Part shown: one piece after another, positions 278-62,956 of the stretch | Layout of the letters: every line of letters begins with the position of its first letter | Numbering within the stretch: position 1 is the first letter of the stretch | Assembly: GCA_051313645.2 (NCBI GenBank) | Contig: JBNRSN020000003.1 | Coordinates: forward strand, 517,762,001 to 517,826,000 | DNA from: Centroscyllium fabricii | Lineage: Eukaryota | Length of the DNA: 64,000 nucleotides | Direction of reading: 5' to 3' | Translations under genes and position numbers: made by a program | The notes under the pieces: generated by a model | What the model saw: only the letters and a program-made list of their open reading frames with translations | Database searches by the model: none | Told to the model about the DNA's origin: nothing

Positions 278-538
278 TGTGATAAACGTGTATATCACTG
301 TATATAGTTAATCACCATGTAACCCATACCTGTAATGCATTCCACTGTGATACCTGGAACATACCTGGCTCCGCCCACGACTCCTCCCCCGCTGGAGGGA
401 GTATATAAGTGACTGCCCCCATCCCCCATGTCATTCTAGGGGACAGTCAGCTTGCTGGTGTGCTTTCTTACTGTAGTCAATAAAAGCCTGATTGTTCTAA
501 TCTACTACACGACTCCGTGGACGTTATTGAAGGTCACA
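278..538 (+). repeat. 5' LTR
   Basis: TGTGATAA...GGTCACA; TATA-like TATATAA near 402; AATAAA at 479-484. Confidence 0.97.
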
Positions 539-557
539 ATTTTATTGACTACTAGAA

Positions 558-3500
558 ATGGATACCTCAATGCTTAAACCAGCAGTGTTCGAAGTTGACC
601 CCCGATCTTCAGGAGCAGCAAACGCCTTCTCACACTGGCAAAACGTGCTCGAAGGGTACATCAGAGCCAACGCGGCGGTCATAGTAACCGAGGAGCAAAA
701 CGGCGACTCTTCAACGCCTGGGTGGGCCCTCAAGTGTACTCAATGACAGTGGACGCCCCATCGTTCCAAGAGGCCATCAGGCTCCTCGAGGCGGAATATA
801 AGCGAGCACCGAACATAGTCCATGCGAGACACATACTCGCTACTAGAAAGCAGCAAAACAACGAATCGAGTGTGCAGTTTCTAAGAGCCCTCAGAGTGCT
901 GGCACGGGACTGTGACTGCAGAGCGCAAACGGCTCAAGTTCATATGGAGAGCCTCATCAGAGACGCCTATGTAACTGGTCTAAAATCGGACTATGCCAGA
1001 CAGAGACTGCTGGAGCAGAACGGCCAGGACTTACAGGCGACCACAGACTTGGGACACGCGCTGGATAGCGCATCAACGGACTTATCGTCATATTCAAGTA
1101 ATTATACGGGCCCAGCCCCGCAAACTTGGACAGCGCTGGCGCAACGACCGGCAGAAGAACTACTCACAGCTGCCCACGCTAAAGCTAGATGCTACTTTTG
1201 TGGGCAACCTCAACACGCAAGACGCAGCTGCCCTGCTAGAGAAGCGACCTGCTCAAAATGTGACAAGAAGGGACATTATTCAAAGGTCTGTAAAAACACT
1301 AACTTTAAATCTAAACTGGGCAGCGCTGCGTGTGGAACAGGGGAGCAGCCACATTGGACTCACCCATCCCCCACTCAGCAGCCCTCATGGCAGCCGCAGC
1401 AACAGCGGCCATCTTTGACTCAGCCTCCACAGCCCAACACATGGCGGCAGCCATTTTGGGGAGCAGACTTGGAGGACTATTCTCCGGATCAAGATAACTC
1501 GGAGGACCCTGTGCTAGCATCGACGAGCCTAGACCAGAGGAAGATTCAACCACTGGAGAAATCGATGATGCCGGTGGAAGTTAACGGTGAAGAGGTGGTG
1601 TGCCTGTTCGACAGTGGGAGCACAGTAAGTTTTGTTCACCCAAATACTGTAAAGCGCCTCTCCCTTAAAGTAATCCCTGCGCGCCAGAGAATATCTATGG
1701 TGTCCAAGTCAGAATCCGCTGACGCCACCGGGCGCTGTATTGTAACGCTTAAAGTACAGGGCGCAATGTTTAATGACTTTAGTTTTTACGTGCTGCCGCA
1801 GCTCTGCGCCCCCCTACTCCTGGGACTGGACTTCCAGTGCCACCTTCAGAGCGTTACTATGGCATTTGGCGGACCCCTTCCCTCACTCACGGTCAGAAAC
1901 CGCGGCTCAAGGCGGTACCCCCAGTACACTACCTGTGGCCTCTCAACCCTTAAGGTTGCCCCTCCATCTCTCTTTGCCAACCTCACCCCAGACTGTAAGC
2001 CCGTCGCCACCAAAAGTAGGCGCTACAGTGCTGGGGACATGGTATTTATAAAATCTGAGGTGCAGCGCCTCCTAAAAGAGGGGGTCATAGAGGCCAGTAA
2101 TAGCCCCTGGAGAGCACAGGTAGTGGTAGTAAAAACCGGAGAGAAGAATAGGATGGTAGTGGATTACAGCCAGACCATAAACCGGTTCACCCAACTAGAT
2201 GCCTACCCCCTCCCCCGGATAGCGGACATGGTGAACCAAATTGCCCAATTTAAAGTGTACTCCACAATAGATTTAAAATCGGCTTATCACCAGCTTCCCA
2301 TCCGCCCAGAGGACCGTCTTTATACAGCCTTTGAGGCTGACGGTCGCCTCTACCACTTCCTTAGGGTGCCGTTTGGCGTCACAAACGGGGTCTCGGTCTT
2401 CCAGAGGGAGATGGACCGAATGGTTGATCGGTACGGGCTGCGAGCGACCTTCCCGTACCTTGATAATGTGACCATCTGCGGCCATGATCAGCAGGACCAT
2501 AACGCCAATCTCGAAAAATTTCTCCACACGGCCAAAACCCTGAACCTAACATATAACAAGGAGAAATGTGTGTTTAGCACCACCCGCCTGGCCATCCTCG
2601 GCAGCGTGGTGGAGAATGGAGTCATCGGTCCAGACCCGGACCGCACGCGCCCCCTCATGGAGCTTCCCCTCCCCCACAGCTCTTAAACGGTGTTTGGGAT
2701 TTTTTGCTTATTACGCCCAGTGGGTCCCCAATTATGCGGACAAAGCTCGCCCACTACTTAAATCGACCTCTTTCCCCCTTTCTGCAGAAGCCAACTCGGC
2801 ATTCTGCAGAATTAAAAACGACATTGCCAAAGCCACGATGCACGCGGTAGATGAGTCCGTCCCATTCCAAGTGGAAAGCGATGCATTGGACTTTGCCCTG
2901 GCCGCCACCCTTAACCAGGCGGGCAGACCCGTGGCCTTCTTTTCACGTACACTCCAAGGCCCCGAAACCCACCATTCCTCAGTCGAGAAGGAGGCCCAGG
3001 CCATCGTTGAAGCAGTGCGGCACTGGAAGCACTACCTGGCCGGCAAACGTTTTACCCTGTTGACTGACCAACGATCAGTCGCATTCATGTTTAATAACAA
3101 AGAACGGGGTAAAATAAAGAACGACAAGATATTAAGGTGGAGAATTGAACTATCTGCGTTCAATTATGATATCTTGTACCGGCCCGGGATATTTAACGAA
3201 CCCCCAGATGCCCTATCCCGCGGTACCTGTGCCAGCGCACAGGCTGACCGTCTCCAAACTCTCCACAATGACCTCTGCCACCCGGGGGTCACCAGGTTGG
3301 TTCACTTTGTGAAGTCCCGCAACCTCCCCTACTCCATCGAGGAGGTCAAGACCATGACCAGCAACTGCCAGGTCTGCGCGGAGTGCAAGCCGCACTTCTA
3401 CCGGCCAGACCGGGCGCACTTGATCAAGGCCACTCGCCCCTTTGAATGACTCAGTGTCGATTTTAAAGGGCCCCTTCCCTCATCTAATAGGAATGTGTAC

Positions 3501-4307
3501 TTCCTTAACATGATAGATGAGTACTCCCGCTTCCCCTTCGCCATCCCCTGCCAGGACATGACCTCCGCCACCGCCACCAAGGCTCTCAATAGCATTTTCT
3601 CCCTGTTCGGGTACCCCAACTATATCCATAGTGACCGGGGGACCTCTTTTATGAGCGACGAGCTGCGCCAGTTCCTGCTAGCGAAAGGCATCGCGACTAG
3701 CAGGACTACCAGCTACAACCCCCGGGGGAACGGGCAGGTAGAGAGAGAGAACACCACTGTCTGGAAAGCCATCCAGTTAGCCCTACGGTCTAAAGACCTC
3801 CCAGTCACCCGATGGCAGGACGTCCTCCCCGAAGCCCTCCACTCTATTTGGTCCCTCCTCTGTACTGCCACCAATGCCACCCCTCACGAACGACTTTTTG
3901 CCTTCCCCAGGAAGTCGGCTTCCGGGACCTCGCTACCATCGTGGCTACTATCTCCGGGACCGGTCCTGCTTCGGAAGCATGTGAGGGGACACAAGGCAGA
4001 TCCCCTAGTCGAACGGGTCCACCTCCTGCACGCAAATCCCCAGTACGCTTATATAGCGTTCCCAGATGGGAGGGAGGACACCGTGTCCATAAAGGACCTA
4101 GCCCCAGCAGGAGTCCCAAAGCCCATGCCGCCGAAGCCGAAGTACGCTCCCCGACACGTGGCCCCAGTATGCTCACAAGGCACCTGCGAGCAGCACGACC
4201 TGGCCCCAAGCTTGGATCCACAGCGCGCGCCCCCTAGAGTCAGAGGACGAAGGAGAGAACGCGCCCCCTGCTGTCAGAATAAGGGCACCACCGCCACCCA
4301 GAAGTAG
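558..4307 (+). pseudogene. Gypsy gag-pol, broken by two frameshifts and one stop
   Basis: 558-746 and 722-2686: CCHC knuckles, protease LFDSGS, RT YLDN; 2568-3449: RNase H (VESDA, LLTDQ) and IN zinc finger; TGA at 3447-3449; 3495-4307: integrase core (IHSDRG, GNGQVER). Confidence 0.93.
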
Positions 4308-4575
4308 CATTACTGCTCATCAACCGGCACCGACACCGCTACAGCAACCGACACGGCCAGCCACGCCTTGACCACCGACACCACAGGCACCTCCAGCGGT
4401 GCGAAGATCGACGCGGACAACCAAACCACCTGAAAGACTCGGCTGGGGGAGCGCCTGATAGATTAAACTTGTAATCATAAGAACTGCGTTTGTATATATA
4501 TATATTTTTTCTGATCACCTTTGTAATTGTTAGTCCTTCACCCCGCTGTATTTTCGTTCTTAAAGAAGGGGTGAA

Positions 4576-4836
4576 TGTGATAAACGTGTATATCACTGTA
4601 TATAGTTAATCACCATGTAACCCATACCTGTAATGCATTCCACTGTGATACCTGGAACATACCTGGCTCCGCCCATGACTCCTCCCCCGCTGGAGGGAGT
4701 ATATAAGTGACTGCCCCCATCCCCCATGTCATTCTAGGGGACAGTCAGCTTGCTGGTGTGCTTTCTTACTGTAGTCAATAAAAGCCCGATTGTTCTAATC
4801 TACTACACGACTCCGTGGATGCTATTGAAGGTCACA
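4576..4836 (+). repeat. 3' LTR
   Basis: Direct repeat of 278-538, preceded by PPT. Confidence 0.97.
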
Positions 4837-5526
4837 ATGTGTGACTTAGAATTACACACCATCCTGACTTGGAAGTATATCGCTGTTCCTTCATCTTCGC
4901 TGGGTCAAAATCCTGGAACTCCCTCCCTAACAACACGATGGGAGTAACTTCACCATGCGGACTGCAGCGGTTCAAGAAGGTGGCTCACCACCACCTTTGC
5001 AAGTGCAATTAGGGATGGGCAATAAATGCTGGCCTTGCCAGCAATGCCCTCATCCTAGGATCAAATACATTTTTTTGTGGAGATGTCGGTATTCCCATTA
5101 CATTACTGCTGTTGTTCTTGGTGGCAAACGCCATAGGCTGGGAAGTGCTGTCATTGAGTTCAGTGGCAGGCCTGCCAAACAAGTAAGCTGCTTTGTCCTG
5201 GATGATGTCAAGTTTGAGTGTTGTTGCGTGTGTCCAAGTAAGTGGTGAGTACTTCATCACACTCCTGACTTGAACCTTGCAGGTAGTGGATCAGCATTGA
5301 GGGAACAGGAGGTGAGCCACTTGTCACAGAGTACTCAGCCTCTGCTTTTGTAGTCACATTGTTGATATGGCTGGTCCAGTTAAGCTTGTGGTCAATGGCG
5401 ACCTCCAGGATGTTGATGGTTGAGGTCTCAATAATGATGGTGCCATTGTAGGTCAGGGGGTGATGGTTGGGCCTTTTCTTGTGGGAGACAGTTATTTTGA
5501 CAAAAATTGTAGTTGTATATATTTGT

Positions 5527-6128
5527 GAAACATAGAAACATAGAAGATAGGAGCAGGGGTAGGCCATTCTGTCCCTGCCTTCTCCCCATATCCCTTGATC
5601 CCTTTAGCCTTAAGAAATATATCTAACTCCTTCTTGAATATATTTAATGAATTGACCTCAACTGCCTTCTGTGGTAGAGAATTCCACAGGTTCACCACTC
5701 TCTGGGTGAAGAAATTCCTCCTCATCTCTGTCCTAAATAGCTTACATCTTATCCTTAAGACTGTGACCCCTGGTTCTGAACTCCCCGGCCATCGGGAACC
5801 TCCTTCCTGCATCTAGTCTGTCTAGTCCTGTTAGAATGTTATAAGTTTCAATGAGATCCCCTCTCATTCTTCTAAACTCCAGCGAGTATAAGCCTAATCG
5901 ACCCAATCTCACCTCATACGTCATTCCTGCCATCCCAGGTATCAGTTTGGTGAATCTTCGCTGCACTCCCTCCACGGCAAGAACATCCTTCCTCAGATAA
6001 GGCGACCAAAACTGCACACAATACTCAAGATGTGGTCTCACCAAGGCCCTGTACAACTGCAGCAAGACATCCTTATTCCTGTACTCGAACCCTCTCGCTA
6101 CGAAGGCCAACATACCATTTGCCTTCTT
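5527..6128 (-). mobile_element. CR1 LINE 3' fragment (young family)
   Basis: LVRPHLEYCVQFWSP, RRMRGDLIE, NFFTQRVVNLWNSLP; (TTTCTATG)n tail. Confidence 0.93.
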
Positions 6129-10400: not shown

Positions 10401-10879
10401 ATATTACATAGAGATATATTTATTTCTGTAATTGGTTTGCAAGGGGAATAAATGTATACCTGCAGCGGGTAAGGAAACCATTATCTTCTAGGTACTTATC
10501 AATAAATACTTTTCCGTTTTTGAGCTGATTTTATTCCTTTCAGTGATAATATAAACAACTCTCACGCCTCTGTAACTCAGCACTTCTTGTTGTAACTGGG
10601 TAACCCCTGACCCACCAAAAGCAATCTCATTGGAGATCTGCTAACTTATATCGAAATCATCGTCCTTTGGACTTTTGTGCAGAAGCAAATCAATCTTTAA
10701 AATGAAGAGAAGGAAAGGTCATCATTTCCAATCTACAAATAAAGTTCCCTAGCAACAGAAACTACCTAATTAACTTCAGGAGACACATTAAAAAAAATGG
10801 CTAAAAAATACAAAGCCAACAATTTCCAATCTATAAACAAATGTTCCCAGCAAACAGAAAATACCTAATTGACCTCAGA

Positions 10880-11278
10880 TGGTAGCAAAATACTGCAGAT
10901 GCTGGAAATCCGAAATAACAACAGAAAACGCTGGAAAAACTCAGCAGGCCAGGCAGCATCGGTGAAGAGAAATAGAGTCGACGTTTCGGGTTCGGACCCT
11001 TTGTCAAAACTAAAGCTGGGGAATGAAACGCAAGCAGGAAGGTGGGGTGGGGGGGAAAGGAACAAAGAAGGCAGCACAAAGAGAAAAGACTTAGACGAGA
11101 TTCTGTGGACAGGAGACAGCTGTAGATTAGGTGTGAAAAACACTGGTAGAACAAGAGGTGGCTGCCACGATAGAGAAAAAGGCCAAATAAACATTGTGGA
11201 TAAAAAGAGGTAAAATATTTCTATTTCTCTCCACCGATGCTGCCTGGCCTGCTGAGTTATTCCAGCATTTTCTGTTGT
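10880..11278 (-). mobile_element. Penelope-like terminal fragment with a short inverted second terminus
   Basis: 14-bp TSD TAATTGACCTCAGA at 10866-10879 and 11279-11292; inverted terminus at about 11217-11278. Confidence 0.8.
10976..11011 (-). ncRNA. Minimal type I hammerhead-like motif (U3-A8 variant, GUC triplet)
   Basis: Minus strand AGTT-TTGACAA-A-GGGT CCGA ACCC-GAAA-CG-TC-GACT. Confidence 0.65.
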
Positions 11279-18695: not shown

Positions 18696-21341
18696 CCTCA
18701 AACGAGGCACTATGGGTGGAGGTAAAAAATAAAAGGGGGGGGGGGGGGGCACCTTACTGGGAGTATATTATAGACCACCAAACAGTAAAGGGGAGATGGA
18801 GGGTAAGATATGTGAGCAAATCACGAAGATAAGCGAAAATAACAAAGTAATAATATTAGGGGACTTTAATTTCCCCAACATCAACTGGGATTGTCAGAGT
18901 GTGAGGGGCACGGAAGGTTCAGCATTCTTAAAATGCAGCCAAGAGAGTTTTTTGAAGCAATATGTTGGGTCACCTACAAGGGGGGGGGGGGGGCGGTACT
19001 AGACCTAATACTTGGGAACGAAGACGGGCAGATAGAGGAGGTAACAGTGGGGGAGCACTTCGGGGATAGCGACCACAATTCAGTTAGTTTCAAGATTGTA
19101 ATAGAGAAGGATAAAAATGGACCAGGGGTAAAAGTACTAAACTGGGGGAAGGCGGATTTCATTAAAATTAGGCGCGATGTAGCTGCAGTAGACTGGGGCC
19201 ATCTTCTCAGAGGAAGATCTGCATCAGAGCAGTGGGAGGCCTTCAGAGGGAAGGTCGGGAAGATACAGGAGGAACATGTTCCTGCAAAAATCAAGGGCGG
19301 GGGAGGTAAACAAAGGGAACCTTGGATGTCTAGGGATATATGTAAATCAATGAAGAAAAAAAGGGGGGCCTTCAATGAATATAAACGGCTAAAAACTGAG
19401 GAGGCGCTAGGGGAGTATAAGAAGTATAGGGGGGAATTAAAGAAGGAGATAAGAAAAGCCAAGAGGGGTCATGAGATTGCAATGGCCGGCAAAATCAAGG
19501 ATAACCCTAAGGCATTTTACAGTTATATAAAAAACAAAAGGATCACGAGGGAAAGAGTGGGGCCCATTAAGGACGATAGCGGAAAGCTGTGCGTCGAGCC
19601 CGAGGCGGTGGGGGAGGTACTAAACGAATTTTTCTCTTCAGTATTCACAAGAGAGAGGGACGGAACCGAATTCGTAATCGGACAGAGTGTAGGGGGGGTA
19701 ATTGAGGATATTACCATTACAAGGGAAGAAGTACTAGAAATCTTGGGAAGCTTAAAGGTAGACAAATCACCAGGGCCGGACGGGATGTTCCCCAGGCTGC
19801 TGTTCGAGGCCAGGGAAGAGCTTGCGGGCCCCCTGTCTCAAATTTTCAGGTCCTCTCTCGCGTCAGGGGAGGTACCCGAGGACTGGAGAACGGCTAATGT
19901 AGTACCCCTGTTTAAAAAGGGTAGTAGGGACAAACCGGGTAACTATAGGCCAATCAGTCTTACATCTGTAGTGGGGAAAGTAATGGAAAAAATTCTGAGG
20001 GACAAAATCAGTCTGCATTTGGAAAGGCAGGGTCTGATAAGAGATAGTCAACATGGCTTCGTCAAAGGTAAGTCGTGCCTAACTAATCTCTTGGAATTCT
20101 TCGAAGAGGTAACAAAAAGGGTGGATGAAGGGAGTACGGTCGACGTGGTGTATATGGACTTCAGCAAGGCTTTTGATAAAGTCCCACATAGGAGACTGAT
20201 AACAAAGGTAAAAGCACATGGGATACAGGGCAACGTGGCACAGTGGATTCAAAATTGGCTGGGGGACAGGAGACAAAGGGTAATGGTAGAGGGCTGCTTC
20301 TGTGACTGGAAACCAGTAACCAGCGGTGTCCCCCAAGGATCGGTTTTGGGACCCTTACTGTTTCTAGTATACATTAATGATTTGGACACGGGAGTAGGGG
20401 GTACGATCAGCAAATTTGCTGATGATACGAAAATTGGAAGGGTGGTAAATAACGATGAAGATAGTAAAAGGCTCCAGGAAGATATAAATGTAATGGTTAG
20501 TTGGGCAGAAAAATGGCAAATGGAGTTCAACCCAGAGAAATGCGAGGTCATACAATTCGGCAGACCAAATGGGGTAAGGGAATATACCATGAACAAAAAA
20601 ACGTTAGGTAGGACCGAGGAACAGAGGGACCTTGGGGTACAGGTGCACAGCTCCCTGAAGGTTGCTGGACACGTAAACAAGGTGGTAAAGAAGGCATACG
20701 GAATTCTCGCCTTTATTAACCAGGGCATAGTGTACAAAAGTAGGGAGGTAATGTTAAACTTGTATAACACGCTGGTGAGACCTCAGCTGGAGTACTGTGT
20801 GCAGTTCTGGTCACCGCACTTCAGGAAGGATGTGGTTGCCCTGGAGAGGGTGCAGAGAAGGTTTACCAGGATGATACCTGGTCTGGGGGACTTATGCTAC
20901 GAGGAAAGGCTGGACAGGCTGGGGTTGTTTGCCTTGGAGAAGAGAAGATTGAGGGGTGACATGATCGAGGTATACAGGATCATGAGAGGACACGATAAGG
21001 TGGATAAAGGGGCATTGTTTCCCTTGGTGGGAGAGTCAAGTACCAGGGGACATAGATTCAAGATTAGGGGGGGGAGGTTTAGGGGGGAGGTAAGGAGAAA
21101 TTTCTTTACTCAGAGGGTGGTGGAAGTGTGGAACTCCCTGCCTGTAAGGGTGGTGGAGGCAGAAATCATCGCAACATTTAAAAAATATTTGGACCAGCAC
21201 ATGAAGGACCGTAACATACAGGGTTATGGGCCAGATGCGGGCAAATGGGGTTAGTATAGTGAGGAGTTTCCTGGGCCGGTGCGGACTGGATGGGCCGAAT
21301 GGCCTTTATCCGCACTGTAAAGTTTCTATGATTCTATGATT
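18696..21341 (+). mobile_element. 5'-truncated young CR1 LINE
   Basis: Endonuclease C-terminal part (GVYYRPP, ILGDFN, DSDHN), full RT, (ATTCTATG)n tail. Confidence 0.96.
18891..21254 (+). CDS. CR1 ORF2 (partial endonuclease + reverse transcriptase)
   Basis: 787-aa open frame: KSPGPDG, NYRPISLTS, DFSKAFDKV, GVPQGSVLGP, FADD; the true frame upstream of about 18995 is 18796-19002. Confidence 0.93.
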   Translation: MSECEGHGRFSILKMQPREFFEAICWVTYKGGGGAVLDLILGNEDGQIEEVTVGEHFGDSDHNSVSFKIVIEKDKNGPGVKVLNWGKADFIKIRRDVAAVDWGHLLRGRSASEQWEAFRGKVGKIQEEHVPAKIKGGGGKQREPWMSRDICKSMKKKRGAFNEYKRLKTEEALGEYKKYRGELKKEIRKAKRGHEIAMAGKIKDNPKAFYSYIKNKRITRERVGPIKDDSGKLCVEPEAVGEVLNEFFSSVFTRERDGTEFVIGQSVGGVIEDITITREEVLEILGSLKVDKSPGPDGMFPRLLFEAREELAGPLSQIFRSSLASGEVPEDWRTANVVPLFKKGSRDKPGNYRPISLTSVVGKVMEKILRDKISLHLERQGLIRDSQHGFVKGKSCLTNLLEFFEEVTKRVDEGSTVDVVYMDFSKAFDKVPHRRLITKVKAHGIQGNVAQWIQNWLGDRRQRVMVEGCFCDWKPVTSGVPQGSVLGPLLFLVYINDLDTGVGGTISKFADDTKIGRVVNNDEDSKRLQEDINVMVSWAEKWQMEFNPEKCEVIQFGRPNGVREYTMNKKTLGRTEEQRDLGVQVHSSLKVAGHVNKVVKKAYGILAFINQGIVYKSREVMLNLYNTLVRPQLEYCVQFWSPHFRKDVVALERVQRRFTRMIPGLGDLCYEERLDRLGLFALEKRRLRGDMIEVYRIMRGHDKVDKGALFPLVGESSTRGHRFKIRGGRFRGEVRRNFFTQRVVEVWNSLPVRVVEAEIIATFKKYLDQHMKDRNIQGYGPDAGKWG

Positions 21342-25414: not shown

Positions 25415-25799
25415 CGGCACGGTGGCACAGTGGTTAGCATTGGTGTCTCACAGCACTGGAGACCCGGGTTCAAATCCGGCCTCGGGTACTATCTGTGCGG
25501 AGTTTGCATTCTCCCCGTGTCTGCGTGGGTTTCCTCCGGGTGCTCCGGTTTCCTCCCACAGTCCAAAGATGTGCGGGTTAGGTTGATTGGCCATGATAAA
25601 TTGACCCGTAGTGCTAGGGGGATTGAATATATGGGGATAGGGTTGGATATGTGTCGATGCAGGCTCAATAGAGATTTGGGAAGAGGGCAGGGGTGGGGTG
25701 CTGGGTTTGGATGATCAGCCATGATCTCATTGAATGGCGGAGCAGGCTCGAAGGGCCGAATGGCCTACTCCTGCTCCTAGTTTCTGTGTTTCTATGTTT
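25415..25799 (+). mobile_element. HE1-like tRNA-SINE
   Basis: A/B-box head and CR1-derived tail. Confidence 0.9.
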
Positions 25800-29945: not shown

Positions 29946-30145
29946 TGTTGTGTATGTGCCTTTAAGAAATTATACTGGGCACTACTTTATGTGGCGCCGT
30001 AATACTGCAGTACCGCGGTCTACCACAAGTGTATATAAGTTCGTACGTGGAGCGATATGCTCAGTTCCAAACTCTGTAATGGTTGAATAAACATCTCCTT
30101 GTTTCATACCTTGGAGTCTAGTCAGTTGTTATAAGACATATAGCA
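29946..30145 (+). mobile_element. Probable solo LTR
   Basis: TGTTGTGTATGT...ACATATAGCA termini, internal TATATAA and AATAAA; no matching TSD seen. Confidence 0.5.
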
Positions 30146-30151
30146 CGGACT

Positions 30152-30527
30152 CGGTGGCACAGTGGTTAGCACTATTGTCTCACAGCACTGGAGACCCGGG
30201 TTCAAATCCAGCCTCGGGTACTATCTGTGTGGAGTTTGCACATTCTCCCCGTGTCTGCGTGGGTTTCCTCCGGGTGCTCCGGTTTCCTCCCACAGTCCAA
30301 AGATGTGCGGGTTAGGTTGATTGGCCATGATAAATTGACCCTTAGTGTTAAGGGGATTGAATATGTGGGGTTACGGGGATAGGGTGTCGATGCAGGCTCG
30401 ATAGGGATCGAGGCATATGGGGAGAGGGCAGGGGCGGGGTACTGGGTTTGGATGATCAGCCATGATCTCATTGAATGGCGGAGCAGGCTCGAAGGGCCGA
30501 ATGGCCTACTCCTGCTCCTAGTTTCTG
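30152..30527 (+). mobile_element. HE1-like tRNA-SINE
   Basis: Same head and tail as the other copies. Confidence 0.9.
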
Positions 30528-30669
30528 TGACTCAACATCACCCTTTTCTGCTTTACATAGAAGTGTGATGAATACAGTATGGCCAACAGCGCTGCATTAA
30601 TTAAAAGGTAGGTCAGAGGGAAAGAAACTTCGAAGTTGGTAGGATCGATGAATAAAAATTCAGTTTATA

Positions 30670-43226: not shown

Positions 43227-44981
43227 TATCAGCTGCTGGCATGAATCACCTCTTCTCCTTCCTTGCTTAATCTCGAACTCTGAGGAGCAACAACCTCACC
43301 CCTGCCAACATGTAATGTTGTTTGTGTACAACTAATTAACAATTGCAGCATATTTGACAGCAACTATCAGGAAATCTAAATCATAATGACTAAACAATAT
43401 ATATAAAAATTTTGGAAGAACTTAAAAATAGGCTTCAAAAATATGATTGTATTTTCATTGCAAAAATGGCTAAAAAGATGGCCATCATTGTGACAATGGC
43501 TAAAGTGATGGCCATGCCAGGCTCATAATTAAGATATGGGCTTCTAAAATCAAAAATGCTTGAGTATGGATCTATCTGTTATTTGACATTTGCTTTTGGC
43601 AACAGTGAAGTAAATTAGGTTTTTTCCCCAAGCCATTCATCAACAGCAGACAGAGCTCGCTTTCAGAAACATGCAGTTGCCACAAATTTTAATAATGACG
43701 CTGCATTTTAGTTCCAGGAATCTGTCCTGTCTGCAGAATCCACAGAGCTGCAGTAACGTTTCTGTACCAAAGTTTTACTGCGTAATTCTACGCCTCTTTT
43801 TAAAAAAAATACCATTTTTGAACAGAAAGGAATATGCTTTGAAAGCTGCAAGAAGGATAAATAGAAGGAAATATCAGATTTCCCCACGTGCTGCTCACGG
43901 TAAGTTGGAGGATATGCTGTTTTGTAATAACAGGAACAAACTGTATACAGCTCTGGTCGCCATATTATAAAAAGGATATAGAGGCACTGGAGAGGGTGCA
44001 GAGAAGAGGGTATACCCATCAGAAAAGGATGAACAGGCTGGGTCTCTTTTCGCTTGGAAAAAGGCTGAGGGGTGACCTAATAGAGGTCTTTAAAATTATG
44101 AAAGGTTTTGATCGAGTAGATACAGGGAGAGTGTTTCCACTTGTGGGGAAGAGCAAAACTAGAGGCTATCAATATAAGATAGAATCATAGGGGGGGGAAT
44201 TTCATGCCACCGTGAGGCGGGGTTTTCGGCGGCCCGGCTGGCAAAATAGCGGACCGGCGGGTCCTGACCTCCCCCGCCGCTTTCTCATTTTCCCCTGCCC
44301 AGATTCCCCGCCCCGAAACATTCCCGCCGCCGGCCGGCGGGGATGGGTTGTCACCTCGTTAAGGGCCCTTAATGCTATTTTAAAGGCCCTCAGCCATTTT
44401 GCCCTGTTTCCCGCACTAACCCCGTCACCTTAAACCCCGCTGGGACACCACCCCCCACCCCCCGAGTGGCAACTGATCAGAGAGCCGGCCCCCGAATCTG
44501 TGGTCTTCTGTGAGGAATCATGCTGTAAACACATTCTTCCTGAATTTATCTACAGCAAGTCAGAGCCCTCTCAGCTTTCCAGTGTAACACCCCCCGATCA
44601 GGGGGTCGGGCGACCCCCCCCAGCGGCAACTGATCAGAGAGCACGGAGAACAGCTGCTGCTCTGCTTCCCCTTTAAGGCCTCATCGGCTGCAGAGGTCAC
44701 GGGGAAGCAAGCAGTGAGTGAGGGAGTGCTGCGCCCGGGAACGGCAATTAGCGGCAAGGTATTTGCCGCCTGGAAGCCGTGCACAGTGTTAGCCGTGAGC
44801 GCGCTAAATGAGCGCGCGTTCACGAGCGCGTTCACATTTTCATGAACGCTGAACGAGCGCGCTCTTTCCCAGCAGCCTGAGCGAAAATGTGAGCGTCGCT
44901 CGCTCTGGAGGGTGTGAGCGGCACTCTCGCGCTCGCGGTATGTGGAGTCTGAATCGCTGCTGCCTTCCGCGCCATCGGGAC

Positions 44982-45237
44982 GGTGAGTGCTTTGCTTTGC
45001 TGCCTTCCGCGCCGGTGAGTGCTTTGCTTTGCTGCCTTCCGCGCCGGTGAGTGCTTTGCTTTGCTGCCTTCCGCGCCGGTGAGTGCTTTGCTTTGCTGCC
45101 TTCCGCGCTGGTGAGTGCTTTGCTTTGCTGCCTTCCGCGACGGTGAGTGCTTTGCTTTGCTGCCTTCCGCGCCGGTGAGTGCTTTGCTTTGCTGCCTTCC
45201 GCGACGGTGAGTGCTTTGCTTTGCTGCCTTCCGCGCC
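44982..45237 (+). repeat. 32-bp minisatellite, 8 units
   Basis: Unit GGTGAGTGCTTTGCTTTGCTGCCTTCCGCGCC with minor variants; partial units on both sides. Confidence 0.95.
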
Positions 45238-45307
45238 ATCGGGACGGTGAGTGTCTCTCTCTCTATCTCTCTATCTAATTAATTAATAGCTTACATACCT
45301 GCCTATT

Positions 45308-46552: not shown

Positions 46553-48060
46553 ACTTGCATTTGTATAGAGCCTTTTACATAGAAAAACATCTCCGGGCGC
46601 TTCACACTGAAGTACAAAATGGACATTGTGCCAAAGAATGCTATTAGGAGGGACGACCAAAGGCTTGGTCAAAAATGTATGTTTAAGAAGGGTCAAATGA
46701 GGATAGGCAAAGGGATTTAAGGAAGGGAATTGCAGGGGGGCTAGATGGCTGCAGGTGCAACTGCCAATGGTGGGACTAATGTGGGGGAGGGGGTTGGTGG
46801 AGGAGGTGGATAAGGGGCGGCACGGTGGTATAGTGGTTAGCACTGTTGCCTCACAGCACTGGAGACCCGGGTTCAAATCCGGCCTCGGGTGACTATCTGT
46901 GTGGAGTTTGCACATTCTCCCCGTGTCTGCGTGGGTTTCCTCCGGGTACTCCGGTTTCCTCCCACAGTCCAAAGATGTGCGGGTTAGGTTGATTGGCCAT
47001 GATAAATTGACCCTTAGTGTTAAGGGGATTAAATATGTGGGGTTACGGGGATAGGGTGGGATATGTGTCAGTGCAGGCTCGATAGGGATCGAGGGATATG
47101 GGGAGAGGGCGGGGTGCTGGGTTTGGAGGATCAGTCATGATCTCAGTGAATGGCGGAGCAGGCTTGAAGGGCCGAATGGCCTACTCCTATCTTCTATGTT
47201 TCTAAGAAGTTGGAGTCGGAGGACCAGAAAGTTCCGAGAGGGTCGTAGGGCTGGAGAACGTTACAGAGATATAGTGGGGCAAGGCCATGGAGGGATCTGA
47301 ACACGAGGATGTGAGTTTTCAAATCGAGGTGTTGGTGGACTGGGAGCCGATGTAATTTGGTGAGCACTGGGGTGATGAGTGAGTGGGACCGGCTGCGGGA
47401 TAGGATACGAGCAGTAGAGTTTGGGATGAGTTGAAGCTTACAGAGGGTGGAGGATGGCCAGGAGAGGATTGAAATAGTTAAATCCCGAGGTGACAAAAAG
47501 CATGAACGAGAGTTTCAGCAGCAGGCGCACTGATGCAGGAGCAGAAGCAGGCAATGTTTCAGGACTTTGGAGAGGAAAGGGAGGTTGGAGATGGAGTGCT
47601 AGTTCACAAGGACAAAGGGGGTCAGGAGTGGGTTTTTTGAGGGGGAGGTGATGAGCGTGGTTTTGAAAAGGAAGGTGGACTGTATCCGAAGAGGGAGAAC
47701 CGTTTATAATATCAGCTGACACGGGGGTTGGGAGTAAAGTTGGGTGATCTGCAGTTTTGTGGCAATCAGCACAAGAGAGCAAGAAGGTGGAGCTCATGGA
47801 CAAGATGAGCTTGGGGAGATAGGAGAGAAGCTTGAGAAAGACAAGAGATCTGGGCTAGGGCAGGGGGAAACTGTAGGTTGGTGGGCAAGGGAACAGTGCG
47901 AGGGGAGGTCTGGCAGAGCCACCTAAACAGATGATCTCAATCTCAGTGACAAAGAAGTCCATGAGTTCCTTTCCAGTTGTTGTTCGAGGGGGGGGGGGGG
48001 GCGGGGGGCAAGGGGGAAGAGGATTAAGGAGATAGTAGGTAGTGTAGAAAAGAGGTAAAG
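46553..48060 (-). mobile_element. L2 LINE fragment, interrupted by an HE1-like SINE
   Basis: ITPVLTKLHRLPV...VFRSLHGLAPLYL in ORF 47194-47496; L2 tail near 46556. Confidence 0.75.
46814..47204 (+). mobile_element. HE1-like tRNA-SINE
   Basis: Full head and CR1-derived tail. Confidence 0.92.
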
Positions 48061-53552: not shown

Positions 53553-53612
53553 TCAGATTTATTAATCTTAACATTCAAGACACACAACCTGAAGGGGCTA
53601 CACGGTGGCATA

Positions 53613-54031
53613 GGGGGGCGGCACGGTGGCATAGTGGTTAGCACTGTTGCCTCACAGCACTGGAGACCCGAGTTCAAATCCAGCCTCGGGTACTATCTGT
53701 GTGGAGTTTGCACATTCTCCCCGTGTCTGCGTGGGTTTCCTCCGGGTGCTCCGGTTTCCTCCCACAGTCCAAAGATATGCGGGTTAGGTTGATTGGCCAT
53801 GATAAATTGACCCTTAGTGTTAGGGGGATTGAATATGTGGGGTTATGGGGATAGGGTGGGATATGTGTCGGTGCAGGCTCGATAGGGATCAAGGGATATG
53901 GGGAGAGGGCAGGGGCGGGGTACTGGGTTTGGATGATCAGCCATGATCTCATTGAATGGCGGAGCAGGCTCGAAGGGCCGAATGGCCTACTCCTGCTCCT
54001 ATCTTCTATGTTTCTATGTTATGTTTCTATG
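53613..54031 (+). mobile_element. HE1-like tRNA-SINE (full length)
   Basis: Full head and (TTTCTATG)n tail. Confidence 0.93.
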
Positions 54032-55534
54032 AAGTATGGGCACAAAGGGTTTTCAAATCTCTTCTATCATCTTCTACAGCTAGGAGCCAGTCAATTTAGA
54101 ACTGTAGTAAATGATTCTACAATCAGTTCCAGACACTTTTCACTCTACTGCAATTAGTTTTTCCATCAAGAATAGTTCAGGACAAAAGTTCTTAGTGGAC
54201 ATGGGACACTAAGAGTTGTATAAGCAAGCTTGTGCCATTAACCTTGTTAACCAATCTGGCTGGGTGAGGTATAAAGATTCCCAATTTATCAGGAAATCAA
54301 AATTACTACCCAGACAATTCCTCTTGGCTATGCAGGTAATTGGAATCTCCTTGACTCCCTGTAATAAACGCAACAATTCAGACACTAAGCATCGATGGTA
54401 TTGTGACTCCCACGACTATTCATGCAGATAATTGGCAACACCATCATATTTCCCAGCTAGATAAAATTGTTTCAATCTCAGTTACTGGGCATTCTAAGCA
54501 TGCAGAAGTTCAGTTTTAACTGAAATTGAAAGCATTCATTTAAAACATTTTTTTAAATTACAAATATCATACTCCTCAGGACAATTACTTCTAAGTCATA
54601 CAACAGAAATATCCCAGGGGAAAATAGTTGCTTTGCTGCTGTTGTGCATGCACCTTCTTGAAGCTAGTTCAGAGAGGCACTGACAGAGGTCCAGAGCCGT
54701 TTGTTTGACTGCAACTGTTGCATGGCCACATGGGATTAGGACTATTGCGTGGTGGGTGAATATCAACACTGACTGGTTGTGTCGAACAGTCAATTTTTGT
54801 GTGGTAATTTCTGAGTAATTCGAAGTAATGGGGCAGAACAAGCAAACGTTAACCTATGTTTTCACTTCCCAGGATTTTCTGTTTTATTTTAAATATATAC
54901 ATCATATGGATATGTTCAGCAGTTCCAATTCTTTATATTATATTATCTGGGACACAGAGTCTGAATTAGAGCCAGGAAAAGTAGTGTGACTGAGGAAGTG
55001 CTTTGGTGACGTTGAAGCTACATCACAAAAAATGCTTCAAGCATTCGTCTTTGTTGGGATTCTGTTTCCACCAGAAACAGTTTGAAACTGGATTCTGTTG
55101 AAATTTAGATCTTCATATTGGCACTACACCAGCGTTAACAGGAATCTTGCCTGCCAATAGAGAGCTGTGCATAAAACATGCCTCCAGAGGGTGCCATGGA
55201 GGTACCCTTTACCTTACTTCCATGTTGGGGACTAAAATAAGACAAGCACATCAAATGGTCTTCGTTGCACTGATTACCAGCCTAGAGTTAAGTATGATCA
55301 TTGTCAATTGGTGGCTCGCATGGCTGATTATTTAGCGAAGTCCACTGCTATTTCCGCAGCCACATCAATAGATAAGGGTAGACGACTGTGGCCATGATGC
55401 AGTAGTGCAATGCAGTGGAACACCAATGAATCGTGCTGCAGCAGCAGGGATCCAGGTTTGGCTGCTTTACACAGCTGAGTTTCTGGTCTCAGCCATGCTG
55501 CTGCGGTGAAGTGCTGAACAGAAGCAACAGAATA

Positions 55535-56260
55535 CAGGTCCACAATCCCTTACCCGAAACCCTTGGGGCCAGATGTGTTTTGGAATTTTTCAGAACGGGC
55601 GGCACGGTGGCATAGTGGTTAGCACTGTTGCCTTACAGCACTAGAGACCCGGGTTCAAATCCAGCCTCGGGTGACTATCTGTGTGGAGTTTGCACATTCT
55701 CCCCGTGTCTGCGTGGGTTTCCTCCGGGTGCTCCGGTTTCCTCCCACAGTCCAAAGATGTGCGGGTTAGGTTGATTGGCCATGATAAATTGACCCTCAGT
55801 GTTAGGGGGATTGAATATGTGGGGTTACGGGGATAGGGTGGGATATGTGTCGGTGCGGGATCGAGGGATATGGGGACAAGGCAGGGACAGGGTACTGGGT
55901 TTGGATGATCAGCCATGAGCTCATTGAATGGCGGAGCAGGCTCAAGGGGCCGAATGGCCTACTCCTGCTCCTATCTTCTATGTTTCTATGGTAGGGGTAT
56001 CTACAACTCAGACATTTTCACAGTGAAATTACACTCAAAATCACAAAAAATATCAGAGAGCAGCAGAAGCACGTGTGACTGGTAGCAGCACTGAGACACA
56101 ACTGACGCCTCACACCTGTGTGGGTCAAGCGTCGGCCGCGTCAGGTCATGTTTGGCGCAACTCAGGACATGTCGTGCACACGAGTGACGCTCCACGAAAA
56201 AACTTTCGGTTTTCAGAGCTTTTTGAATTTTTGAATTGCGGATAAGGGGTTGTGGACTTG
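55535..56260. mobile_element. Tigger/pogo-like MITE interrupted by an HE1-like SINE (55597-55990)
   Basis: TA-CAGGTCCACAATCCCTTA...TAAGGGGTTGTGGACTTG-TA. Confidence 0.82.
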
Positions 56261-62726: not shown

Positions 62727-62956
62727 AAATAACGACAGAAAACGCTGGAAAAACTCAGCAGGCCTGGCAGCATCAGTGGAGAGAGAAACAGAGTTAATGT
62801 TTCAGGTCGATGACCTTTCTTCAGCACTCTGAAGAAAGGTCATCGACCTGAAACGTTAACTCTGCTCCTCTCTCCACCGATGCTGCCTGGCCTGCTGAGT
62901 TTCTCCAGCGTTTTCTGTCGTTATTTCGGATTTCCAGCACCCGCAGTATTTTGCTA
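62727..62956. mobile_element. Inverted pair of Penelope-like termini forming a hairpin
   Basis: 98-nt arms at 62727-62824 and 62829-62926, loop CACT; hammerhead core CTGAAGA...GAAA starts at 62829. Confidence 0.85.

Follow-up and report, generated by a model that had tools for sequence, protein, structure and literature searches.

Possible self-priming from the poly(A)-signal segment of the LTR in a Gypsy retrotransposon without a chromodomain from Centroscyllium fabricii

Analysis of a 64,000-nucleotide stretch of the Centroscyllium fabricii genome (contig JBNRSN020000003.1, positions 517,762,001 to 517,826,000 of the forward strand; hereinafter, the window, numbered from its first nucleotide) identified at 278-4836 a young yet broken copy of a Gypsy element without a chromodomain, in which the primer-binding site (PBS) position is taken up by an exact complement of a segment of the element's own LTR that includes the poly(A) signal. 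The complementarity and its register relative to the LTR end are preserved, with differing sequences, across six families of related elements. Priming of reverse transcription by the element's own RNA in some form, rather than by a tRNA, is the likely explanation. The more specific reading that we consider the best, namely, that an animal Gypsy element without a chromodomain primes itself from the poly(A)-signal segment of its LTR, at a predicted internal position of the transcript, has in our estimate about an even chance of being correct.

Structure and relatives of the element

The element shows the features of Ty3/Gypsy retrotransposons (Metaviridae): LTRs with TG...CA ends, a target-site duplication (TSD), a polypurine tract (PPT), the order protease-RT-RNase H-integrase, and an RT that, among solved structures, is closest to that of Ty3. 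A Pfam search detected the protease, RT, RNase H, integrase zinc finger and integrase core in the Gypsy order, and no chromodomain in the four frames of the window element. The parts of the element are as follows.

273-277, no strand: left TSD, ATGTG
278-538, plus strand: 5' LTR, 261 bp, TGTGA...TCACA
558-690, plus strand: start of gag, with the ATG at 558; the N-terminus resembles those of relatives, and the frame is broken near 690-700
695-2683, plus strand: gag, aspartic protease and RT with a YLDN motif; the frame is broken near 2685
2687-3446, plus strand: RNase H and integrase zinc finger, followed by a premature stop at 3447-3449
3450-4304, plus strand: integrase core, chromodomain not detected
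4562-4575, plus strand: PPT ending in GAA, adjoining the 3' LTR
4576-4836, plus strand: 3' LTR, with a second copy of the pairing segment at 4771-4783 and AATAAA at 4777-4782, predicted to be mostly unpaired
4837-4841, no strand: right TSD, ATGTG

The LTRs differ by four transitions (K2P 0.016) and are flanked by the 5-bp TSD; the frame breaks near 690-700 and 2685 and the stop at 3447 indicate that this copy is dead but young. Two CCHC-like knuckles are apparent in the translation of the gag part of 695-2683. No further copies were detected inside the window, where the self-search matched only the two LTRs, and the patterns tried yielded no U1-type splice donor within 539-1100. The PPT ends in GAA in all eight 3' junctions displayed.

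A search of longer proteins scored 8,000 of them, with 514 matches at E <= 1e-20. The 120 relatives listed from this set (P0001-P0120) are gag-pol proteins of 1,135-1,551 amino acids; the named ones come from Narcine (ray), Trichuris (nematode) and Ischnura (insect), and the nearest named relative among the matches listed is from Narcine (73% over the integrase core). The chromodomain is absent in all five full-length relatives scanned. The RT active-site motif of the window element (2453-2464) reads YLDN rather than YxDD. Among the 120 listed relatives of the 514, this motif contains DN in 75 and DD in 43 (two were not scored), so that elements of this lineage naturally do without the second aspartate; a literature search on its loss returned no match.

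The LTR-leader duplex in the window

The segments involved in the predicted pairing are located as follows.

473-485, plus strand: LTR segment complementary to the PBS; predicted self-primer, with a predicted cut at or next to 485/486
479-484, plus strand: AATAAA poly(A) signal, inside the 5'-LTR duplex
539, plus strand: lone base separating the LTR end from the duplex (a spacer of this length recurs in all seven junctions compared below)
540-552, plus strand: sequence at the PBS position, without TGG, the exact complement of 473-485

The original prediction held that no TGG follows the 5' LTR, that 540-552 is the perfect 13-nt reverse complement of 473-485, and that this LTR segment spans AATAAA. 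All three statements are borne out: the first TGG downstream of the 5' LTR is at 559, within the gag start codon; none of 20,000 dinucleotide shuffles of the LTR reached 13 bp of complementarity (the maximum was 11); and the AATAAA at 479-484 is the only one in the LTR. With at most one mismatch, the 13-mer occurs in the window at 473, 540 and 4771 only (expected 0.10). The duplex is bounded by true mismatches (472T/553T and 486G/539A), and all 13 pairs are present in the minimum-energy RNA fold (z = -4.2 for the segment 470-560), with a mean pair probability of 0.99; the predicted fold extends over the gag ATG. Within U5 of the 5' LTR, 524-530 is a 7-nt complement of 477-483; in the 3' LTR, the match is 6 nt. 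These segments might form a weak alternative hairpin that covers the hexamer.

Conservation of the duplex among related elements

A single pattern scan of prokaryotic genome contigs produced 45 matches and eight related loci (L001-L008). These Gypsy elements are embedded in bacterial MAG assemblies, and their flanks are AT-rich and laden with repeats; we read them as eukaryotic DNA, and they look like host contamination. Their RT pieces are 51-71% and their integrase pieces 46-66% identical to those of the window element. The LTR-leader junction is intact in six of the eight loci which, together with the window, gives seven junctions from six families; L002 and L006, without a 5' junction, were left out of the duplex counts, and L004 was folded into the family of L005. 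The loci include very short LTRs, of approximately 120 bp each (L003, 3216-3336; L007, 5855-5972), and the L007 duplex lies just 23 nt away from the LTR end. Two contigs, L001 (1-3949) and L003 (1-4023), each contain a whole element in circular permutation, in which a single LTR joins the PPT to the PBS, and represent either collapsed repeats or one-LTR circles; L001 contains an open frame of at least 1,162 amino acids that reaches the contig end.

The perfect duplex is 13 bp long in the window and L003, 14 bp in L001, L005 and L007, 10 bp in L004 and 17 bp in L008. The observed length was reached by none of 3,000 shuffles for five junctions, by 6 for L003 and by 11 for L004; the duplex and shuffle analysis of L007, the LTR of which starts at 5855, had used an earlier start. 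With offsets of 1-5 allowed, the duplex begins at LTR+2 in all seven junctions, the right LTR end being set by the second LTR in the window, L004, L005 and L007 (with TSDs in three of these) and placed by eye at the CA preceding the duplex in L001, L003 and L008. No TGG occurs within 12 nt of the LTR in any of the seven. The PBS of L004 pairs over 10 bp with its own 5' LTR and over 12 bp with its own 3' LTR.

Core pairs were counted anchored at the inner end of the duplex, since the MAFFT DNA alignment misaligned L003. Across the six families, the 85 core pairs are without exception Watson-Crick and include no G-U; A-U is invariant at positions 1-3, and each of the positions 4-14 accommodates two or three Watson-Crick pair types. 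Part of this variation is accounted for by a slip of one base, with an additional A and an additional T in the window and L003; among the in-register families L001, L005, L007 and L008, 6 of the 14 columns change on both sides. Both duplex ends are true mismatches, the inner one being G.A in five of the six families. Each PBS pairs best with the LTR of its own family (12-17 bp); with other families, 4-8 bp are paired, except for 10-11 bp between L004/L005 and L007, the cores of which are identical at 12 of 13 positions. The LTRs of different families show no similarity except around the pairing segment in 2 of the 15 pairs. The predicted pair probability of the duplex is 0.88-0.99 in the junctions examined. 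A distant Gypsy control, L009, with AATAAA 48 nt from the putative LTR end, gives 6 bp only; this was the one record used of three from a plasmid search (NZ_CP087956.1), a 5.3-kb Wolbachia 'plasmid' that encodes a Gypsy-type protease, RT and RNase H and looks like contamination.

The covariation expected under the original prediction is thus observed: all seven junctions, from six families, keep the duplex with differing sequences, always at LTR+2. In a quick integrase tree of 74 rows, the duplex-bearing loci are scattered, so that the trait looks clade-wide; given that the families are related to each other, their agreement does not represent six independent events. Beyond the core, pairing reaches significance for the window alone (p about 0.02) and not across families (Fisher p 0.12-0.32). 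Such outer pairing was considered as clade-wide proof of an RNA running upstream of the core and was dropped, being non-significant in the six families and against cross-family controls.

Transcription start and position of the putative primer

The 5' LTR of the window element contains a candidate promoter with the following parts.

371-376, plus strand: GC box of the Sp1 type
402-409, plus strand: TATA box; TATAWAWR has no other match in the LTR
431-437, plus strand: Inr-like element with the predicted start A433, 31 nt after the TATA box (prediction only)

The pairing segment had been placed about 70 nt past the TATA box, and the distance is indeed 71 nt. A GC box, TATA box and Inr in textbook spacing were recovered in 2 of 50,000 shuffles and in none of 303 background tiles, compared with 103 of 50,000 and 3 of 303 for the TATA box with a spaced Inr alone; given the TATA box, an Inr appeared in 1,225 of 20,000 shuffles, which by itself is weak evidence. 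These criteria are textbook ones but were applied after the sequence was seen. The promoter places the pairing segment at +41 to +53 of the predicted RNA, so that a start near 433, as read from the sequence, would put the primer some 40 nt inside the transcript. Upstream of the cores in the relatives, canonical Inr elements are not enriched (p 0.25-0.33) and shared promoter k-mers in the seven LTRs reach best p values of 0.06-0.9; an upstream motif noticed post hoc in five of the seven LTRs (p 0.008, unadjusted) is a lead only. The proposal that the pairing segment does not lie at the cap therefore agrees with the GC box, TATA box and Inr of the window, which predict a start at 433, but gains nothing from the relatives, which give no such promoter. 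If these elements self-prime, we somewhat favor an internal position of the primer.

The main competing possibility, which we rate as tentative but clearly the strongest of the alternatives, follows the Tf1 model: the RNA would start at or next to 473, and the primer would be its capped first 11-14 nt, including the hexamer, in which case cap proximity, not a hairpin, would silence the 5' signal. The sharp boundary of the core at 13-14 bp in five of the six families and the lack of G-U pairs would fit a primer that ends at the cap, as would the lack of clade-wide pairing farther out and the presence of a TA step within the first four bases of every core; furthermore, Tf1-type primers are described as 5'-terminal in the relevant passages of PMC7175516 and PMC10085805, and Tf2 has alternative start sites according to those of PMC5341516. 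Against a start at 473, the promoter of the window points to 433, and no TATA-like sequence is found at 435-455, where such a start would need it; TATAWA is likewise missing at the right distance, with none in the 58 nt preceding the core in any of the seven LTRs, and five of the six cores start with a pyrimidine.

The poly(A) signal and alternative roles of the duplex

The sequence that closes the duplex on the LTR side is AATAAA(A) in four families, ATTAAA in a fifth and GGTAAA in the sixth (L008); its A-run is thus part of a poly(A) hexamer in five of the six families. In the four elements with both LTRs, the mean probability that the hexamer is unpaired is 0.00-0.05 in the 5' LTR versus 0.55-0.80 in the 3' LTR, an asymmetry that is built in because the pairing partner lies outside the LTR. 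A candidate cleavage site follows the duplex.

508-509, plus strand: CA 24 nt past the duplex, a candidate poly(A) cleavage site (the copy in the 3' LTR would be the one used)

HIV is primed by a tRNA, and its polyA hairpin lies inside the LTR and hence forms at both ends; here, by contrast, the hairpin has as its partner the PBS itself, outside the LTR. What is shared with HIV-1 is the location of AAUAAA within an RNA stem near the 5' end, and inhibitory RNA structure is one accepted way of repressing the 5' poly(A) signal of HIV-1 (PMC5961354). The original prediction that the duplex masks the 5'-LTR signal accords with the burial of the hexamer in the predicted folds, but this is not universal: L008 keeps a 17-bp duplex with GGTAAA, which is none of the listed poly(A) hexamers, and in L004/L005, a second AATAAA is located in the loop, outside the duplex. 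Given these two cases, masking does not explain the duplex in general and would be at most a frequent side benefit.

That the duplex is a regulatory hairpin only, involved in poly(A) masking or control of gag translation, with priming by something else, appears unlikely. Such a role would be compatible with the predicted burial of the hexamer at the 5' LTR only, with the repression of the HIV-1 5' signal by RNA structure (PMC5961354), and with the extension of the window fold over the gag ATG. It is harder to reconcile with the L008 duplex that is retained without a hexamer, with 0 G-U among 85 pairs, and with the fact that no other primer site is seen. The constant register at LTR+2 in 7/7 junctions favors a primer, which must sit there to define the LTR end; a masking hairpin need not.

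The original prediction also named the R segment of the 3' LTR as a potential primer: the copy at 4771-4783 would loop to the PBS, be cut after the A-run and prime from the 3' region of the genomic RNA. This copy is identical to the 5' one and is predicted to be mostly unpaired, and its use would yield a longer strong-stop DNA, which is relevant where the loop is only 24 nt (L007); however, whenever the transcript includes the 5' copy, the local 5' hairpin holds the PBS (P 0.88-0.99; about 0.99 in the window), so we disfavor this route and regard it as improbable. Priming by a host tRNA, a tRNA half or another small RNA, with a secondary LTR match, is the least credible of the alternatives and very improbable even though half-tRNA priming without TGG is known in Copia lineages (PMC6317226), given that the PBS differs between families and tracks their own LTRs, which a conserved host RNA cannot do, that the CCA complement is absent, and that an Rfam search of 250-700 gives a single chance-level match (E 2.9). 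ARAGORN finds no tRNA gene in the window.

Proposed mechanism of self-priming

Under the preferred reading, that is, self-priming from an internal segment, the starting point is the observed complementarity, fixed at LTR+2 and covarying across six families. Transcription is predicted to start near 433; once the leader is made, 473-485 would fold onto 540-552, leaving a 54-nt loop. By analogy with Tf1, in which 11 nt are complementary and RNase H cuts between nucleotides 11 and 12 (PMC7175516), the element's RNase H would cut at or next to 485/486, and the freed 3'-OH at the AAUAAA(A) end would prime a minus strong-stop DNA of about 54 nt (24-60 nt depending on the family, judging by the loop lengths). 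This DNA could then jump to the 3' end of the RNA via the approximately 10-30 nt that separate the hexamer from the poly(A) site. The duplex is also predicted to bury the hexamer of the 5' LTR but not that of the 3' LTR, and may thus help to stop premature polyadenylation while the 3' signal stays accessible, probably as a secondary benefit. As a conjecture, the absence of G-U pairs would fit a PBS that is recopied from the primer in every cycle.

The fullest version of this scenario, which we put forward tentatively and consider doubtful as a whole, is that self-priming arose in a widespread animal Gypsy lineage independently of Tf1/sushi, with the poly(A) signal serving as an internal primer. 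In this version, an RNase H cut immediately past the hexamer would release a 3'-OH about 50 nt from the cap, the same 13-17 bp duplex would silence the 5' AAUAAA, and strand transfer would have just the 10-30 nt ahead of the poly(A) site as homology.

Comparison with known self-priming elements

A working criterion for self-priming is complementarity of at least 10 bp to the 5' LTR, starting 0-5 bp after the LTR (PMC6317226); all seven junctions contain 10-17 bp at LTR+2, and none contains the TGG-starting PBS near the LTR that is characteristic of tRNA-primed elements. Self-priming in Gypsy elements is described for Tf1/sushi chromoviruses (PMC7175516, PMC4600332, PMC10085805, PMC5341516), always from the extreme 5' end of the RNA in the pertinent parts of PMC7175516 and PMC10085805. 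The window element resembles Tf1/Tf2 and the Tf1/sushi group in its Gypsy-order pol, the lack of a tRNA PBS and the complementarity of the PBS to a short segment of its own 5' LTR. The Tf1/sushi group is defined by a chromodomain at the integrase C-terminus (PMC10085805), in contrast to the window element and its five full-length relatives. The side helices of the Tf1 'pretzel' are not above shuffles (Fisher p 0.34-0.83 for leader-loop pairing), and a U5-end stem is significant in L003 only (p 0.18 overall). Further differences are that the poly(A) A-run here forms the end of the primer segment, at a distance of only 23-59 nt from the LTR end, and that the primer is predicted to be internal in the window element versus 5'-terminal in Tf1; in a by-eye comparison, the RT motif blocks of Sushi and Maggy also differ from those of the window element. 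Without a chromodomain and a pretzel, the element is not assigned to Tf1/sushi.

Other candidates for affinity were considered. The plant elements Tcn1 (a chromovirus) and TAR/Houba/Osr-1 (Copia), which are predicted self-primers under the same working criterion, differ from this animal non-chromovirus Gypsy element, and the primer-related text of PMC6317226 does not mention overlap with a poly(A) signal for them. Skipper of Dictyostelium is likewise a Gypsy element that lacks a TGG PBS and has a pyrimidine-rich stretch following its LTR, but is a chromovirus without a complementary LTR segment (PMC5006619). Troyka/Kuafuorterviruses are animal LTR elements that are present in cartilaginous fish (PMC11673190); identity with them was ruled out given their CG termini, 3-bp TSDs and IADD/VADD/LADD motifs, described in PMC12440569 and PMC11673190, versus TG...CA, a 5-bp TSD and YLDN in the window element. 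By eye, the RT motifs are unlike those of Mag, SURL, Jule, CsRn1 or others in the part of the PMC2871265 supplement compared, and motif searches of the accessible portions of the supplements of three papers (PMC11673190, PMC6238403, PMC8556966) gave no match. The Atlas look-up returned generic retrotransposon gag clusters only, and a literature search on Cigr returned no match.

Within the portions surveyed of a full-text literature collection, the scope of which leaves out most subscription journals and Repbase Reports, we found no description of self-priming in non-chromovirus animal Gypsy elements or of a primer that coincides with part of the poly(A) signal. In Repbase, certain animal Gypsy families are recorded as self-primed, and self-priming of this clade may already be noted there; the overlap with the poly(A) signal and the internal primer are the likelier new parts.

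A second self-priming lineage, with neither chromodomain nor pretzel, would demonstrate how little suffices to drop tRNA priming, a point that bears on the proposal that priming by hairpins was the earliest form (PMC3601003). An internal primer would mean that RNase H can create a primer at a helix junction away from the cap; if masking holds, one helix serves both priming and the 5'-LTR poly(A) problem. In practical terms, the CA-N-TTT(T)A junction could serve as an annotation signature for elements scored as lacking a PBS.

Other repeats in the window

Beyond the Gypsy element, the window contains a 794-amino-acid open frame with an RVT_1 domain (18870-21254), probably a LINE, and a dispersed repeat with a tRNA-like head and a shared tail (25415-25642, 30140-30555, 46812-47230, 53612-54036 and 55594-56008, with inverted copies), an arrangement that we take to be typical of SINE/LINE pairs. 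A near-perfect hairpin at 62727-62926, with 98-nt arms that are 94% complementary, a 4-nt loop and a related arm at 10869-10970, is possibly a palindromic non-autonomous element. A tandem array with a 32-bp unit, the inner copies of which are 98% alike, occupies 44918-45300.
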